A stretch of DNA of 64,000 bases from NCBI RefSeq assembly GCF_003019035.1, contig NZ_CP027447.1. The stretch is one strand, 5' to 3'. Below, one piece after another: positions 1 through 9,127 of this stretch (position 1 is its first letter; the number at the start of each line of letters is the position of its first letter). The DNA is from Escherichia coli. Lineage in GTDB: Bacteria; Pseudomonadota; Gammaproteobacteria; Enterobacterales; Enterobacteriaceae. The notes below the pieces were generated by a model. It did not search any database. It saw only the letters and a list, made by a program, of their open reading frames with translations, and was not told the DNA's origin. Made by a program: the position numbers and the translations under genes.

Positions 1-461
1 AACTGCCTGACGCAGAACTGCCGGACATCAACCCAGCAGATTTGCGCATTGATACTTTCCGCTCGTCAGGGGCGGGGGGGCAGCACGTTAACACCACCGA
101 TTCGGCAATTCGTATTACTCACTTGCCGACCGGAATTGTTGTTGAATGTCAGGACGAACGTTCACAACATAAAAACAAAGCTAAAGCACTTTCTGTACTC
201 GGTGCTCGTATCCACGCTGCTGAAATGGCAAAACGGCAACAGGCCGAAGCGTCTACCCGTCGTAACCTGCTGGGGAGTGGCGATCGCAGCGACCGTAACC
301 GTACTTACAACTTCCCGCAGGGGCGCGTTACCGATCACCGCATCAACCTGACGCTCTACCGCCTGGATGAAGTGATGGAAGGTAAGCTGGATATGCTAAT
401 TGAACCGATTATCCAGGAACATCAGGCCGACCAACTGGCGGCGTTGTCCGAGCAGGAATAA
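1..461 (+). CDS. prfA: peptide chain release factor 1, C-terminal part (5' end lies outside window)
   Basis: Open frame from window edge to stop at 461; translation contains the GGQ motif ([24 protein letters not shown]) of class I release factors; followed by prmC with 1-nt overlap as in enterobacteria. Confidence 0.93.
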
Positions 462-1294
462 TGGAATATCAACACTGGTTACGTGAAGCAATAAGCCAAC
501 TTCAGGCGAGCGAAAGCCCGCGGCGTGATGCTGAAATCCTGCTGGCGCATGTTACCGGCAAAGGGCGTACTTTTATTCTCGCCTTTGGTGAAACGCAGCT
601 GACTGACGAACAATGTCAGCAACTTGATGCGCTACTGACGCGTCGTCGCGATGGTGAACCTATTGCTCATTTAACCGGGGTGCGAGAATTCTGGTCGCTG
701 CCGTTATTTGTTTCGCCAGCGACCTTAATTCCGCGCCCGGATACGGAGTGTCTGGTGGAGCAGGCACTGGCGCGGTTGCCTGAACAGCCTTGCCGTATTC
801 TCGATCTCGGGACGGGTACCGGGGCGATTGCGCTGGCGCTGGCTAGCGAGCGCCCGGACTGCGAAATTACCGCTGTAGATTGTATGCCTGATGCTGTCTC
901 TCTGGCGCAACGTAATGCCCAGAATCTGGCGATCAAAAATATCCACATTCTGCAAAGTGACTGGTTTAGCGCGCTAGCCGGGCAGCAGTTTGCGATGATT
1001 GTCAGCAATCCGCCGTATATTGACGAGCAGGACCCACATCTTCAACAAGGCGATGTCCGCTTTGAGCCGCTCACTGCACTGGTTGCGGCTGACAGTGGAA
1101 TGGCCGACATCGTGCATATCATCGAACAGTCGCGTAACGCGCTGGTATCCGGCGGCTTTCTGCTTCTGGAACATGGCTGGCAGCAGGGCGAAGCGGTGCG
1201 ACAGGCATTTATCCACGCGGGATATCATGACGTCGAAACCTGTCGGGACTATGGTGATAACGAGCGCGTAACGCTCGGCCGCTATTATCAATGA
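461..1294 (+). CDS. prmC: release factor glutamine N5-methyltransferase (PrmC/HemK)
   Basis: 277-aa ORF; SAM-methyltransferase GxGxG (LDLGTGTGAI) and NPPY motif (VSNPPYI); ATG overlaps prfA stop. Confidence 0.95.
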   Translation: MEYQHWLREAISQLQASESPRRDAEILLAHVTGKGRTFILAFGETQLTDEQCQQLDALLTRRRDGEPIAHLTGVREFWSLPLFVSPATLIPRPDTECLVEQALARLPEQPCRILDLGTGTGAIALALASERPDCEITAVDCMPDAVSLAQRNAQNLAIKNIHILQSDWFSALAGQQFAMIVSNPPYIDEQDPHLQQGDVRFEPLTALVAADSGMADIVHIIEQSRNALVSGGFLLLEHGWQQGEAVRQAFIHAGYHDVETCRDYGDNERVTLGRYYQ

Positions 1295-1683
1295 CAAGTT
1301 TTTCTACACTGCTTAGCGTTCATCTCATTAGCATTGCGCTTTCTGTAGGGCTATTAACCTTACGTTTCTGGCTACGTTATCAGAAACATCCACAGGCTTT
1401 TGCTCGTTGGACGCGCATTGTGCCGCCGGTTGTCGATACGCTGTTATTGTTAAGCGGCATTGCGTTGATGGCTAAAGCGCACATCCTGCCATTTTCCGGG
1501 CAGGCACAGTGGCTGACTGAAAAGCTGTTTGGAGTTATCATTTATATCGTTTTGGGTTTTATTGCACTCGATTATCGTCGTATGCACAGTCAGCAGGCGC
1601 GCATTATTGCCTTCCCGCTGGCGTTGGTGGTGCTGTACATCATCATTAAACTCGCCACCACAAAAGTACCGTTACTGGGGTAA
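1291..1683 (+). CDS. ychQ: small inner-membrane protein SirB2/YchQ family
   Basis: 130-aa hydrophobic ORF overlapping prmC stop by 4 nt; conserved position after prmC. Confidence 0.85.
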   Translation: MTSFSTLLSVHLISIALSVGLLTLRFWLRYQKHPQAFARWTRIVPPVVDTLLLLSGIALMAKAHILPFSGQAQWLTEKLFGVIIYIVLGFIALDYRRMHSQQARIIAFPLALVVLYIIIKLATTKVPLLG

Positions 1684-1686
1684 GTC

Positions 1687-2496
1687 ATGAGATCGTTAGC
1701 TGATTTCGAATTTAATAAAGCGCCATTGTGCGAAGGCATGATCCTGGCTTGCGAAGCAATCCGCCGCGATTTTCCCTCGCAAGATGTTTACGACGAACTG
1801 GAGCGTCTCGTTAGTCTGGCGAAGGAAGAAATCAGCCAGCTTCTGCCTTTAGAAGAACAGCTGGAAAAACTGATCGCGCTGTTTTACGGCGACTGGGGAT
1901 TTAAAGCCTCACGCGGCGTTTATCGTCTTTCCGATGCATTATGGCTGGACCAGGTGTTAAAGAATCGACAGGGCAGTGCGGTATCATTAGGTGCCGTTTT
2001 ATTATGGGTCGCGAATCGTCTCGATTTGCCGCTGCTGCCGGTGATTTTCCCTACGCAGCTGATATTGCGCATTGAATGTCCGGATGGCGAAATTTGGCTG
2101 ATTAATCCTTTTAACGGTGAATCGTTAAGTGAACATATGCTGGATGTGTGGTTAAAGGGAAATATCAGCCCGTCGGCGGAACTGTTTTATGAAGACCTTG
2201 ATGAAGCTGATAACATTGAGGTAATCCGCAAATTGCTGGATACACTCAAAGCCTCGTTGATGGAAGAAAATCAGATGGAGCTGGCGCTACGTACCAGCGA
2301 AGCTTTATTACAATTTAACCCGGAAGATCCCTATGAAATTCGCGATCGCGGGTTGATTTATGCGCAACTGGATTGCGAACACGTTGCGTTGAACGATTTA
2401 AGTTATTTCGTTGAACAGTGTCCGGAAGACCCGATCAGCGAAATGATCCGTGCGCAAATAAATAACATCGCGCATAAACATATTGTGCTGCATTAA
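1687..2496 (+). CDS. ychA: SirB1/YchA family protein (transglutaminase-like/TPR)
   Basis: 269-aa ORF directly after ychQ; conserved synteny prfA-prmC-ychQ-ychA-kdsA. Confidence 0.85.
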   Translation: MRSLADFEFNKAPLCEGMILACEAIRRDFPSQDVYDELERLVSLAKEEISQLLPLEEQLEKLIALFYGDWGFKASRGVYRLSDALWLDQVLKNRQGSAVSLGAVLLWVANRLDLPLLPVIFPTQLILRIECPDGEIWLINPFNGESLSEHMLDVWLKGNISPSAELFYEDLDEADNIEVIRKLLDTLKASLMEENQMELALRTSEALLQFNPEDPYEIRDRGLIYAQLDCEHVALNDLSYFVEQCPEDPISEMIRAQINNIAHKHIVLH

Positions 2497-2522
2497 TTAA
2501 TCGACATTTTACTCAAGATTAA

Positions 2523-3386
<864 letters not shown>

Positions 3387-3534: not shown

Positions 3535-3642
3535 TTACTTCCGGTTACGCCACCAGCTGACAATCGCTGCGGTAATAATTCCCGCCAGGATCGGTGCTGC
3601 CAGGTCGTACCAGAAAGTCATGGCAAACTGCGTGAGCGTCAT
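3535..3642 (-). CDS. ldr: Ldr-family type I toxin peptide (35 aa)
   Basis: Hand translation of minus strand: MTLTQFAMTFWYDLAAPILAGIITAAIVSWWRNRK*; matches the LdrA/B/C small hydrophobic toxin; located between kdsA and chaA where ldr/rdl copies reside in E. coli; not in ORF track because under 60 aa. Confidence 0.85.
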   Translation of the reverse strand: MTLTQFAMTFWYDLAAPILAGIITAAIVSWWRNRK

Positions 3643-4046: not shown

Positions 4047-5147
4047 TCAGGCAAATATCGTCATCAAATAGGCGGCAAACAGTGCCAGATGCGCTGCGCC
4101 ATTGAGCACGTTAGTACGTCCGGTGGAGAAGGAGATATGGCACAGCACTAAAGAGGCCACCATCACCACCATTTCTGGCGCACCAAGTGCAAACTGCAAT
4201 TCGTTACCCGTCATAAAGGCAATTAGCGTGACGACAGGTACGGTAAGCGAAATGGTTGCTAACACTGAACCAAAGAACAGATTCATCGCGCGCTGGACCT
4301 GGTTGTTCAACACTGCTTTTAACGCACCTAAACCTTCCGGCGACAGAATCAACAGAGCCACCAGGAAGCCAGTAAAGGCGACAGGGGCATTCATGCTGTC
4401 GAGCAATGTCTCCAGCGGGCTGGCGTTCATTTTGGTGACTGCAATAACGGCAATCAGATGGATAATCAACCAGATAGCATGCCACAGGCTGCTATGGGCA
4501 GACGGTTTACCGTGGTGCGGGTCGTCATCATCACTGTCATCTTCGTGCTCGTAGACAAACAAACTTTGATGCGTTTTGGTCTGGATCAGCAAAAATACGC
4601 CATACATTGCCGCAGAAATTAATGCTACCAGTAACGCCTGACCGGTTGAAAAATTCGCCGCAGGCAGAGCCATTGGAAATACCAGTACGATTATCGCCAG
4701 GGGGAACAGCGCAATTAAATACTGCTTGATACCAAACAGATTCATATATTGGGTGGCAAACTTGCGTCCGCCCAACAATAATGAAAAGCCAACCAGCCCA
4801 CCGGTAACAATCATAATGATTGAATAGAGCGTATCACGCATTAGCGTTGGCGCGGCGTCGCCGGTTGCCATTAAAGCTGAAATCAAACTGACTTCAAGAA
4901 TAACCACTGAAAGGCTAAGAATAAGCGAACCGTAAGGTTCTCCCAGGCGATGGGCTAATACGTCCGCATGACGGACAACACTAAAGGCGCTACTTAAAAT
5001 ACCAATAAGAGCAAGAAGATTGATGGCAATGACCACTGGTAGTGTCTGGCTGCTTCCCCACAGGAACAGCACTACCAGCGCCAGAACCGGGAAAATAAGC
5101 GAAGTCTCCTTGTGGCGGGTTTTTACCGCCTCTTGAGCATTTGACAT
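4047..5147 (-). CDS. chaA: Na+(K+)/H+ / Ca2+/H+ antiporter ChaA
   Basis: ORF track 4047..5234 trimmed to ATG at 5147 (MSNAQEAVKTRHKETSLIFPVLALVVLFLWG...), giving 366 aa; polytopic membrane protein with acidic DDSDDDD loop. Confidence 0.93.
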   Translation of the reverse strand: MSNAQEAVKTRHKETSLIFPVLALVVLFLWGSSQTLPVVIAINLLALIGILSSAFSVVRHADVLAHRLGEPYGSLILSLSVVILEVSLISALMATGDAAPTLMRDTLYSIIMIVTGGLVGFSLLLGGRKFATQYMNLFGIKQYLIALFPLAIIVLVFPMALPAANFSTGQALLVALISAAMYGVFLLIQTKTHQSLFVYEHEDDSDDDDPHHGKPSAHSSLWHAIWLIIHLIAVIAVTKMNASPLETLLDSMNAPVAFTGFLVALLILSPEGLGALKAVLNNQVQRAMNLFFGSVLATISLTVPVVTLIAFMTGNELQFALGAPEMVVMVASLVLCHISFSTGRTNVLNGAAHLALFAAYLMTIFA

Positions 5148-6543: not shown

Positions 6544-6897
6544 TTAAAATGTGAGCACTTTATCGGCTGACAGCGTCCATTGCGCCAGTTCCACAAGAGT
6601 ACTGATTTCCACCCCATCAATCAGAGGAAGTGTGCTAATCCCGCGTCCGTCAGTACAGGTTTTGCACAATTTCACCGGTACATTCTGAGCGGTAAGGATC
6701 TCCAGCATTTGCTGAATGTTGTAGCCTTCCCCTGGTTTTTGCCCGCGCAACCCGGCTGTGACCGCATCAGACATCAGGAACAGACGCAGATCCAGATTGC
6801 TCTCCTGCTCTCGTAACGCAATGGCCAGCCGCAAGCTGTTAAACAAGGATTCGCTCCCGTAAGGTGCGCCATTGGCAACGATCACGATTTTTTGCAT
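6544..6897 (-). CDS. ychN: DsrE/DsrF-like family protein YchN
   Basis: 117-aa ORF MQKIVIVANGAPYGSESLFNSLRLAIAL... Confidence 0.88.
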   Translation of the reverse strand: MQKIVIVANGAPYGSESLFNSLRLAIALREQESNLDLRLFLMSDAVTAGLRGQKPGEGYNIQQMLEILTAQNVPVKLCKTCTDGRGISTLPLIDGVEISTLVELAQWTLSADKVLTF

Positions 6898-6945
6898 TAT
6901 TTACTCCTGTATTCAGGGAATTAGACACTCATCTTCTATCTTACC

Positions 6946-7072
<127 letters not shown>

Positions 7073-7081
7073 ACCGACGTT

Positions 7082-8476
7082 TTGAGCCGTTTCGTTCCTC
7101 GCATTATTCCGTTTTATTTACTCTTGCTGGCGGCAGGCGGTACAGCTAACGCACAATCTACCTTCGAGCAAAAAGCGGCAAATCCCTTTGATAATAGCAA
7201 TGATGGTCTGCCGGATTTAGGCATGGCACCTGAAAATCATGATGGGGAAAAACACTTTGCTGAAATTGTGAAAGATTTCGGCGAAACCAGTATGAATGAT
7301 AACGGGCTGGATACTGGCGAGCAGGCAAAAGCTTTCGCATTGGGAAAAGTCCGCGATGCGCTTAGTCAACAGGTTAATCAGCACGTAGAGTCCTGGCTAT
7401 CACCGTGGGGAAATGCCAGTGTTGACGTCAAAGTGGATAACGAAGGACATTTCACCGGCAGTCGTGGAAGCTGGTTTGTGCCGTTACAAGATAATGATCG
7501 TTATCTCACCTGGAGCCAGCTTGGTCTTACTCAGCAGGATGATGGGCTGGTGAGCAATGTGGGCGTTGGGCAACGCTGGGCGCGCGGCAGCTGGCTGGTG
7601 GGTTATAACACTTTTTATGACAACTTGCTGGACGAAAATCTTCAGCGAGCGGGCTTTGGCGCTGAAGCGTGGGGCGAATATTTGCGACTATCGGCAAACT
7701 TTTATCAGCCGTTTGCTGCATGGCATGAACAGACAGCCACGCAGGAACAACGGATGGCGCGCGGGTACGACCTGACAGCCCGGATGCGCATGCCGTTCTA
7801 TCAACACCTCAATACCAGTGTCAGCGTAGAACAGTATTTTGGTGATCGTGTCGATTTGTTTAACTCTGGTACGGGTTATCACAATCCCGTCGCGTTGAGT
7901 CTGGGATTAAATTACACCCCTGTGCCCTTAGTCACTGTGACGGCCCAGCATAAACAGGGTGAAAGTGGCGAGAATCAAAATAACCTCGGGCTGAATCTTA
8001 ACTACCGCTTTGGTGTACCGCTCAAAAAACAACTTTCTGCGGGCGAAGTTGCCGAAAGTCAGTCGTTACGTGGTAGTCGCTATGACAATCCGCAGCGAAA
8101 TAATCTTCCGACTCTTGAGTACCGACAGCGAAAAACCCTAACGGTGTTTCTGGCGACACCGCCGTGGGATCTAAAACCTGGCGAAACAGTGCCGCTGAAA
8201 TTACAAATCCGCAGTCGTTACGGTATTCGGCAACTGATTTGGCAGGGCGATACGCAGATATTAAGTTTGACGCCGGGCGCACAAGCCAACAGCGTGGAGG
8301 GCTGGACGCTGATCATGCCTGACTGGCAGAACGGGGAAGGGGCGAGCAATCACTGGCGATTGTCGGTGGTGGTGGAAGATAACCAGGGGCAGCGTGTCTC
8401 CTCCAATGAGATCACGCTAACGCTTGTCGAACCGTTCGATGCATTGTCAAACGACGAACTGCGCTGGGAACCGTAA
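7082..8476 (+). CDS. ychO: invasin/intimin-family outer-membrane beta-barrel protein YchO
   Basis: 464-aa ORF with N-terminal signal peptide (LLLLAAGGTANAQ) and C-terminal Ig-like region; TTG start at 7082 is uncertain. Confidence 0.8.
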   Translation: MSRFVPRIIPFYLLLLAAGGTANAQSTFEQKAANPFDNSNDGLPDLGMAPENHDGEKHFAEIVKDFGETSMNDNGLDTGEQAKAFALGKVRDALSQQVNQHVESWLSPWGNASVDVKVDNEGHFTGSRGSWFVPLQDNDRYLTWSQLGLTQQDDGLVSNVGVGQRWARGSWLVGYNTFYDNLLDENLQRAGFGAEAWGEYLRLSANFYQPFAAWHEQTATQEQRMARGYDLTARMRMPFYQHLNTSVSVEQYFGDRVDLFNSGTGYHNPVALSLGLNYTPVPLVTVTAQHKQGESGENQNNLGLNLNYRFGVPLKKQLSAGEVAESQSLRGSRYDNPQRNNLPTLEYRQRKTLTVFLATPPWDLKPGETVPLKLQIRSRYGIRQLIWQGDTQILSLTPGAQANSVEGWTLIMPDWQNGEGASNHWRLSVVVEDNQGQRVSSNEITLTLVEPFDALSNDELRWEP

Positions 8477-9127
8477 TCAGAAAATGCGCTCCTGATGCAC
8501 CCATACCGCTGCTTCCACGCGAGACTTGAGCTTCATTTTCTTCAGCATGTGCTTGACGTGCACTTTTACTGTGCTTTCGGTGATATCCAGGCGGCGGGCA
8601 ATCATCTTGTTCGGCAAACCCTGGGCAATCAGCTTGAGAATATCGCGCTCGCGTGGGGTTAACTGGTTAACGTCGCGCTCAGTAGTGGCACGGTTTGCGC
8701 GCAAGCTGGCGGCCAGAACAGGCGTTAATGCTTCGCTTAATACCATTTCGCCAGCAGCTGCCTGATGCAATGCTTTCAGCAGATCTTCCGGTTCCATATC
8801 TTTTAACAGATAGCCATCCGCGCCGCGTTTCAGTGCGGTGACCACATCTTCTTCATGGTTAGAGACGCTGAATACCACAATGCGCCCTGAGAGGGACTTT
8901 TCGCGGAGTTTATCCAGCGTTTCCAGACCATTCATGCCGGGCATATTGAGATCTAACAGGATCAGATCGGGATCAAGAGATTCCGCCAGTTCAATACCCT
9001 GTTCGCCATTACTCGCTTCGCCAACCACGGTGATATCTGGTGCCATACTGATAAGCTGTTTTACGCCAGTTCGCAGCATCGGGTGATCGTCGATCAGCAG
9101 GATAGTAGCCGGTTCCTGATTACTCAT
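8477..9127 (-). CDS. narL: nitrate/nitrite response regulator NarL
   Basis: ORF track 8477..9241 trimmed to ATG 9127 ([21 protein letters not shown]...), 216 aa; receiver domain plus LuxR-type HTH; start overlaps narX stop. Confidence 0.95.

Follow-up and report, generated by a model that had tools for sequence, protein, structure and literature searches.

The ychO locus

The window, meaning the whole stretch of 64,000 nucleotides of Escherichia coli DNA that was analysed, carries on its plus strand an uninterrupted open reading frame (7082..8476) whose first codon is TTG and which encodes 464 amino acids. The list of open reading frames and the RefSeq coding sequence agree with the original prediction on these coordinates and on the TTG codon, and RefSeq begins the gene at the same codon and makes it 1395 nt long in E. 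coli SCU-301, in O157:H7 (Z1504), and in K-12 MG1655 (b1220, NP_415738.2). The gene and its convergent neighbor lie as follows.

7082..8476, plus strand: ychO (b1220; the same gene as iatA), coding sequence with a TTG start and 464 codons plus a TAA stop (ORF list, RefSeq, NF007556)
8477..9127, minus strand: narL, facing ychO in convergent orientation, its stop codon abutting that of ychO with zero intergenic bases (sequence CCGTAATCAGAA and annotation)

Over a 1701-nt stretch around ychO the window is 100% identical to SCU-301, and a search of 5426 complete E. coli genomes, with a match counted at 80% or more coverage of the query, detected the locus in 5420. The RefSeq label under these genome matches reads "ychO: inverse autotransporter invasin YchO," and the protein scores 802.4 bits against the NCBIfam equivalog NF007556 ("YchO/YchP family invasin," cut-off 508), with residues 5-454 aligned to positions 3-452 of the 454 in the model. 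Together with the Pfam result given below (PF11924, E 5.5e-103), the 802-bit match bears out the name ychO and the placement in the invasin/intimin family that had been proposed from the sequence. YchO/IatA of K-12, of APEC SEPT362, and of SMS-3-5 is the same gene, with the same flanks and the same 1395-nt coding sequence as in the window. Identity between the window's ychO and other E. coli ychO is about 98-100%, above the NF007556 equivalog cut-off; the differences of the window strain, which carries the T5 form of an upstream T-run, are allelic only, and there are a few amino acid changes relative to K-12 and O157 (for example, N39S).

In the RefSeq annotation of SCU-301, the upstream neighbors are chaA, chaB, chaC, and ychN (minus strand) and the downstream neighbors narL (minus strand), narX (minus strand), and narK (plus strand), so the predicted location beside the nar regulon stands, with ychN and narL flanking the gene and narX and narK nearby. 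The order ychN-ychO-narL is found in E. coli SCU-301, O157, and K-12, whereas in three Citrobacter species it is nitrate reductase-ychO-narL, the narL side being kept and the upstream neighbor being a different one, an assimilatory nitrate reductase gene. The abutting stop codons of ychO and narL recur in C. koseri and C. rodentium, and ychO-narL is among the overlapping convergent transcript pairs in PMC12288877. A horizontally acquired island was ruled out by a GC content of 0.50-0.53, as in the neighbors, and by the narL synteny in Citrobacter. The open reading frame is thus ychO/iatA, a real, core E. coli gene that has already been described and annotated: the gene, its family, its prevalence, the missing Ig repeats, and the N-terminal extension bearing the signal peptide are all in PMC4787180, PMC6714894, PMC4943183, and RefSeq, and nothing in this account of ychO is new.

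Control of ychO by NarL, considered on account of the adjacency of narL, found no support, since the ychN-ychO intergenic region holds one isolated TACYYMT heptamer (6902-6908, overlapping the ychN ribosome-binding region), whereas the narK and narG promoters have clusters of them. Scans of 6850-8700 returned one sigma-70 promoter-like site (6872-6900, which falls within the start of ychN or borders on it) and four terminator-like sites, neither class exceeding the shuffled expectation in that interval.

Start codon and signal peptide

N-termini in databases and papers give the protein lengths of 417, 464, and 476 aa. The three starts and the neighboring features are listed here.

7040..7042, plus strand: in-frame TAA, 14 codons upstream of the TTG, at which the ychO frame is closed (in-frame upstream walk)
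7047, plus strand: upstream ATG, start of the 476-aa form (P0002 and P0003, proteins from gene calls on metagenome and Logan data)
7082, plus strand: TTG, start of the 464-aa form (RefSeq and K-12)
7223, plus strand: Met48, start of the 417-aa form (older annotation)
7082..7153, plus strand: predicted Sec signal peptide, residues 1-24 (MSRFVPRIIPFYLLLLAAGGTANA/QS junction; rule-based features)
7154..7408, plus strand: predicted periplasmic N-terminal region, residues 25-109 (helices modelled with low confidence; LysM absent)

The signal peptide was called by a rule-based feature analysis of its n-, h-, and c-regions. The n-region, MSRFVPR, has a charge of +2, the h-region (IIPFYLLLLAAGG, a 13-residue hydrophobic core) has a mean Kyte-Doolittle hydropathy of 2.07, and the c-region, TANA/Q, contains an A-x-A cleavage motif (A-N-A/Q), the pattern AGG(T/H/C)A(S/N/C)A-Q being kept in the Citrobacter orthologues. 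By these features, residues 1-24 are predicted to form a Sec signal peptide, in agreement with the original prediction. The region that follows (residues 25-109) contains the motif NPFDNxxDGLPDLG at about 7184-7222, conserved in E. coli and Citrobacter, and differs from its Citrobacter counterparts at a pN of 0.14-0.15 and a pS of 0.77-0.91. The AF2 pLDDT is below 50 for residues 15-103, and a Pfam scan of residues 25-109 found neither LysM, the peptidoglycan-binding domain of intimin and of larger E. coli members of the family, nor any other domain, detecting only the edge of IAT_beta.

Several observations bear on the choice among the three starts. In this window, no ATG, GTG, or TTG occurs in frame between the TAA at 7040-7042 and the TTG at 7082, and in C. 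rodentium, an in-frame TAA lies only 5 codons upstream of its TTG. The triplets TTG-AGC-CGT are nucleotide-invariant in all aligned E. coli loci and in those of C. koseri, C. rodentium, and C. portucalensis (six coding sequences plus further aligned loci), although pS elsewhere is about 0.7-0.8, near saturation; TTTGAGCCGT is likewise invariant across E. coli and the three Citrobacter species, and the sequence upstream of it diverges, with indels. Shine-Dalgarno complementarity, the point that counts against the TTG, is weak before that codon (− 3.6 kcal/mol) and about as weak before Met48 (− 3.3 kcal/mol).

Export of a beta-barrel outer-membrane protein requires a signal peptide, and the sequence beyond Met48 contains no hydrophobic segment (its best 12-mer has a hydropathy of 0.58), which makes a start there incompatible with an outer-membrane barrel. 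The view that the first internal ATG (7223, Met48) is the true start, yielding a 417-aa protein without a signal peptide, can appeal to the codon being ATG rather than TTG, to a ribosome-binding sequence no worse than that of the TTG by much, and to older annotations such as the APEC SEPT362 entry, which lacks the 141-bp extension encoding the signal peptide (PMC4787180). We nevertheless regard it as very improbable. The 47 codons upstream of Met48 are conserved at the protein level between E. coli and Citrobacter, their pN being much lower than their pS, and include NPFDNxxDGLPDLG directly before M48, so that translation must begin before M48, and the TTG is the start used by RefSeq, by K-12 (NP_415738.2), and by NCBIfam. 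The upstream ATG (7047), which would lengthen the N-terminus by 12 residues to a precursor of 476 aa, is represented by 476-aa forms beginning MVFHFLPEVTDV in the protein collection (P0002 and P0003), is the codon at which the iatA cloning primer of Goh et al. begins, and has an in-frame GTG at the equivalent position in C. koseri and C. portucalensis. In the window, however, this ATG is out of frame and its reading terminates at 7085, so it cannot apply here; about 72% of the sampled E. coli also have it out of frame, strain AST85 has ATT instead, and C. rodentium has neither a start codon nor an open frame at its place. The extension is also not conserved as protein and would put two acidic residues into the n-region, and we give this alternative next to no chance of being the true start. 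The upstream ATG shifts its frame between strains and is not found in every one, which favors the TTG as the start that they share. The original prediction was fair in calling the start uncertain, given that 417-, 464-, and 476-aa versions exist; comparison of the sequences nonetheless allows the ambiguity to be resolved, with translation predicted to start at TTG 7082, the codon that it had picked.

Barrel, linker, and passenger domain

Downstream of the N-terminal region, the protein comprises three further parts.

7409..8014, plus strand: 12-strand inverse-autotransporter beta-barrel, residues about 110-311 (Pfam, PDB matches, AF2, Foldseek)
8015..8116, plus strand: linker with short helices, residues 312-345, with the motif LxGSRYDxxxRNN..LEY (alignment, conservation, AF2)
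8117..8431, plus strand: single Ig-like (intimin D00-like) passenger domain, residues about 346-450 (AF2, Foldseek, weak sequence match)

The profile search that had been suggested as a check on the family assignment finds the invasin/intimin domain: residues 64-341 match Pfam PF11924 (IAT_beta) at an E-value of 5.5e-103 (344.8 bits against a cut-off of 22.3), the sole Pfam family found, which bears out the predicted beta-barrel. In a sequence search of the PDB, residues 108-348 aligned with two crystallised beta-domains, that of invasin (4e1t, E 1.3e-47) and that of intimin (4e1s, E 3.2e-41). The AF2 model, built on 54 diverse homologues, is confident at residues 110-450 (pLDDT about 85-97) and consists there of a 12-strand barrel (111-309), two linker helices (314-317 and 320-326), and one beta-sandwich (345-448). 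Superimposed by Foldseek on 4e1t and 4e1s, the modelled barrel gives TM scores of 0.96 and 0.95 with rmsd values of 1.3 and 1.4 Å, respectively.

In the alignment to the crystallised beta-domains of invasin and intimin, the linker falls on their C-terminal part, and in 54 family members, its R339 is invariant and its G331, R333, D335, and N340 are nearly so. Judging from the homologous structures, we infer that it corresponds to the segment that fills the barrel lumen in intimin and invasin and that it would occupy the pore of YchO in the same way. The domain order in the model is inverted, with the passenger C-terminal to the barrel and joined to it by this conserved linker. YchO is an inverse autotransporter (type Ve secretion; intimin/invasin superfamily) and a short, minimal member of that group.

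Beyond the barrel, only about 120 aa remain, and the protein ends 14 residues after a single Ig-like domain. A separate AF2 model of the C-terminal region (pLDDT 84.6) has about 9 strands in a single beta-sandwich, for which the best Foldseek match is the D00 domain of intimin in 6tqd (E 1.3e-5, rmsd 2.9 Å over 107 columns), followed by generic Ig folds. By sequence, the only match of this region among solved structures is a weak one to the same D00-D0 fragment (6tqd, E 0.018). A homologue search covered 1.8 billion representatives, and most of the 150 homologues listed align up to about query residues 440-455, so that the Ig-like domain has its homologous counterpart in the domain that comes first after the barrel in large members of the family.

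The Ig-like C-terminal repeats described in the original prediction are not present. The C-terminal 123 aa by themselves match no Pfam family, even at E ≤ 10, and so offer no sign of a C-type-lectin-like receptor-binding tip; no Big domain was found by Pfam in the whole protein at E ≤ 1; the two halves of the C-terminal region share no similarity by BLASTP; and the models contain one domain, a single beta-sandwich. YchO carries one D00-like Ig domain and falls outside the intimins and invasins proper.

Relation to other inverse autotransporters

Invasin of Yersinia pseudotuberculosis and intimin of EHEC/EPEC, the founding inverse autotransporters (4E1T, 4E1S, 6TQD), have in common with YchO a signal peptide, a 12-strand IAT_beta barrel (35-39% identity, rmsd 1.3-1.4 Å), the conserved lumen linker, and the first extracellular Ig-like domain of the D00 type. 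YchO differs from them in having no Big_1/Big_2 chain, no C-type-lectin tip, and no LysM, its passenger measuring about 115 aa against roughly 500 aa in theirs, and it reaches only 184 bits against the intimin equivalog, for which the cut-off is 1400. It falls far below the cut-offs of the SinH, intimin, and other named inverse-autotransporter models of NCBIfam, of which SinH is the next-best match (242 bits, cut-off 999). SinH/IatB of Salmonella and ExPEC is likewise a short inverse autotransporter whose passenger is missed by the Pfam Big models (PMC6714894), but it is about 725-743 aa long, lies at another locus, and has a co-encoded partner of the SinI type. ZirT of the Salmonella ZirTSU system resembles YchO in architecture, its IAT barrel being followed by no more than a short C-terminal extension that is Ig/FnIII-like (PMC4943183), and differs from it in the secreted substrates, ZirS and ZirU, that are co-encoded downstream.

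Integrity of the gene and selection

The Citrobacter orthologues of YchO are 461-468 aa long and 76-81% identical to it. Relative to the three Citrobacter species, pS is about 0.7-0.8, near saturation, and pN is 0.07-0.16, and dN/dS comes to about 0.05-0.06 over the whole gene and to 0.11-0.13 over the Ig-like domain; neither a dN/dS near 1 nor frequent frameshifts across the species were seen. These values bear on whether ychO might be the decaying remnant of a larger adhesin of the intimin/invasin type, functionless by itself, an idea to which the lack of the Big repeats, lectin tip, and LysM of the classic members lends itself, as do the failure of one study to detect the YchO/IatA protein and the toleration of an occasional disruption, exemplified by an IS66 insertion in strain S7. 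Against this stand a locus that 5420 of 5426 complete genomes retain with 80% or more of the query covered, a full-length 1395-nt coding sequence in the sampled RefSeq annotations, a length of 461-468 aa kept in Citrobacter, and strong purifying selection in every domain, the passenger included (dN/dS about 0.1, with synonymous sites saturated). Distant relatives are of like length as well (481 aa at 52% identity, with others of 457, 480, and 508 aa), and Heinz et al. (PMC4943183) described the proteins with short extensions as a monophyletic group. Decay is therefore highly unlikely, and the word "fragment" used in the original prediction does not fit: ychO is a full-length, conserved short member of its family.

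Proposed mechanism and function

It is very likely that the account as a whole holds, namely that the gene is ychO/iatA and that it is translated from the TTG into a protein with a signal peptide, a 12-strand barrel, a linker, and one D00-like Ig domain, which is exported as an inverse autotransporter. Following the mechanism of the family, Sec would export the precursor, BAM would insert the barrel into the outer membrane, and the C-terminal domain of about 115 residues would pass outward through the barrel as a hairpin, leaving the linker in the pore and the single Ig-like domain just above the membrane surface.

The published work on function comes from few sources. Pilatti et al. (2016; PMC4787180) reported that deletion of ychO in APEC reduced adhesion, invasion, biofilm formation, and virulence and altered 426 transcripts; complementation restored these traits, adhesion being restored without change in the transcripts of other adhesins, and the authors stated explicitly that YchO has neither Ig-like repeats nor a lectin domain. 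Goh et al. (2019; PMC6714894) described "iatA," a 1,395-bp inverse-autotransporter gene with an FnIII/Ig-like passenger present in 99% of E. coli, in a paper whose main text does not contain the string "ych"; the primers of that study match the 5′ and 3′ ends of ychO, which identifies iatA as ychO, the forward primer (ATGGTTTTTCATTTTTTACCGGAAGTT) being the upstream ATG with a T6 allele of the T-run and the reverse primer the gene's 3′ end. IatA/YchO was not reliably detected in that work, for which its authors blamed a poor antiserum. Heinz et al. (2016; PMC4943183), beyond grouping the short-extension proteins, floated a translocator role of the ZirT kind for them.

The term "adhesin-like" is plausible for YchO on the strength of one APEC mutant study (PMC4787180), and, going by that deletion mutant in the literature, YchO may contribute modestly to adhesion, invasion, and biofilm formation. 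With 426 genes altered in the mutant, the adhesion phenotype may be indirect. A single short domain without a lectin tip does not make a long-reach adhesin like intimin or invasin, a role that its membrane-proximal position makes unlikely, and O-antigen would cover a domain so close to the membrane, which counts against a direct role as an adhesin. These considerations lead to the competing explanation that YchO is a ZirT-like outer-membrane translocator or helper, or that its loss perturbs the envelope, and that it is not itself an adhesin. Such a role was raised by both Heinz et al. and Goh et al. for short-passenger members with an FnIII/Ig-like extension, and it would accommodate both the 426 changed transcripts and the poor placement of a membrane-proximal single domain for reaching host receptors. 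Systems of the ZirT type, however, co-encode their substrates downstream, whereas the neighbors of ychO (ychN on the opposite strand and the convergent narL) offer no candidate partner, nor does the assimilatory nitrate reductase gene beside it in Citrobacter, and complementation of the APEC mutant restored adhesion with the transcripts of other adhesins unchanged. We consider this explanation unlikely, without regarding it as far-fetched, and prefer the reading of YchO as an exported inverse autotransporter with a modest contribution to adhesion.

The upstream T-run

Two features immediately upstream of the TTG determine how the upstream ATG relates to ychO.

7047..7085, plus strand: upstream ATG and 12-codon uORF (MVFHFYRKLPTF followed by a stop), in the +1 frame (translation, frame analysis)
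7058..7062, plus strand: T-run that is polymorphic between strains, being T5 in this one, TTATT in K-12, and T6 in O157 and other strains (alignments)

The TGA of the uORF (7083-7085) overlaps the TTG of ychO (7082-7084) as TTGA. The T-run lies 20 nt upstream of the TTG, and its length sets the frame of ATG 7047 relative to ychO: with one more T, in the T6 allele, the ATG comes into frame and yields the 476-aa form. Searches for exact alleles, which cover only 4110 of the approximately 5420 genomes, counted T5 in 1166, TTATT (the K-12 type) in 2534, and two T6 types in 309 and 101. In a systematic sample of 60 genomes, the length greater by one was found in 17 (about 28%) and was absent, as in the window, from 43 (about 72%); three sampled variants were checked by sequence, and two sampled +1 variants proved to be T6, whereas AST85 has ATT in place of the upstream ATG. 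Phase variation by slipped-strand switching was rejected, the tract being only 5-6 nt long and the T6 alleles carrying linked flanking SNPs. From this pattern, the alleles look lineage-fixed rather than hypermutable or phase-variable.

The polymorphism could conceivably rewire YchO production lineage by lineage, through coupling to the uORF in some lineages and fusion to an in-frame ATG in others, a proposal that we hold to be doubtful. Under it, the uORF stop that overlaps the TTG in five-base alleles could, through termination-reinitiation coupling, be what drives translation from the weak TTG, and in T6 alleles, the in-frame ATG would give the signal peptide a 12-residue acidic extension. 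If both modes were used, the level of YchO expression or the efficiency of its export would differ systematically between E. coli lineages, and the published pIatA, like other constructs that begin at the upstream ATG, might misreport the protein. Confirmation of the TTG start for the window strain is of practical value, as the 417-, 464-, and 476-aa N-termini in databases and constructs are tied to a 1-nt polymorphism of the T-run and call for a caution that may concern anyone expressing YchO/IatA or raising antibodies to it.

Possible alternative start codon of ychO

The role of the ATG upstream of ychO is set by a 1-nt polymorphism in a run of T residues. In approximately 72% of E. coli, this ATG opens a 12-codon upstream open reading frame (uORF) whose stop overlaps the TTG start of ychO (TTGA), and in approximately 28% it is in frame with ychO and yields the 476-aa form of the product; strain AST85 has ATT where others have the upstream ATG. 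The features at and upstream of the start, together with the matches to published primers, are as follows.

Features of the ychO locus (window positions)
6650-6666, + strand: counterpart of the sigma-54 site IA11, TCAGTACAGGTTTTGCA, inside ychN and antisense to it
7047-7085, + strand: upstream ATG and 12-codon uORF, its stop overlapping the ychO TTG as TTGA
7058-7062, + strand: polymorphic T-run, T5 in the window, TTATT in K-12, and T6 in O157-type strains
7047-7073 and 8460-8476: matches of the iatA primers 4366/4367

The published expression construct for iatA, a synonym of ychO, was amplified with primers 4366/4367 and begins at the upstream ATG of the T6 allele, not at the TTG (Goh et al. 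2019, PMC6714894). IatA was not detectable in that study, the main text of which does not use the name ychO, and any link between the non-detection and the start of the construct at the upstream ATG would be speculative.

Flanking sequences and neighborhood

IA11 was identified by ChIP-seq 405 nt upstream of ychO, with the K-12 sequence TCGGTACAGGTTTTGCA (Bonocora et al. 2015). Relative to K-12, the window's sequence is altered in the GG dinucleotide that occupies the -24 element position, which may weaken the site in this strain.

At the other end of the gene, the ychO stop TAA abuts the narL stop (TCA on the + strand, TGA on the - strand; 8474-8479) with zero intergenic bases, so the convergent transcripts must overlap, and the pair is among the overlapping pairs given by ExcludonFinder (PMC12288877). 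The search for an intrinsic terminator between the two genes turned up no convincing candidate. The stops also abut at 4407/4408 in the loci of Citrobacter koseri (L005) and C. rodentium (L006).

Synteny between E. coli and Citrobacter is confined to the ychO-narL-narX-narK side. Where E. coli has chaC and ychN, the loci of C. koseri, C. rodentium, and C. portucalensis (L007) have, within positions 1-3000, an assimilatory-type nitrate reductase gene (Molybdopterin/Fer2_BFD) upstream of ychO and in the same orientation, with a nitrite-reductase-like gene ahead of it. Elsewhere in the window, the segment at about 3535-3642 (- strand) corresponds to an Ldr-family type I toxin that is annotated between kdsA and chaA in the identical SCU-301 genome (L001, 636-743).

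Conservation and loss

The short motif NPFDNxxDGLPDLG (7184-7222, residues 35-47) shows almost no variation between E. coli and Citrobacter, and is located in the periplasmic N-terminal region, in a segment that is disordered in the model. In one complete genome, that of E. coli S7 (NZ_CP107128.1, 1-3823), the IS66-family element ISEc23 splits ychO; loss of the gene is thus tolerated at least occasionally. Thirteen of the approximately 5430 places matching the ychO locus in the E. coli genome search were on plasmid-labelled records, which is unexpected for a chromosomal locus of the core genome; the replicons may be mislabelled, or the plasmids may carry large pieces of chromosome.
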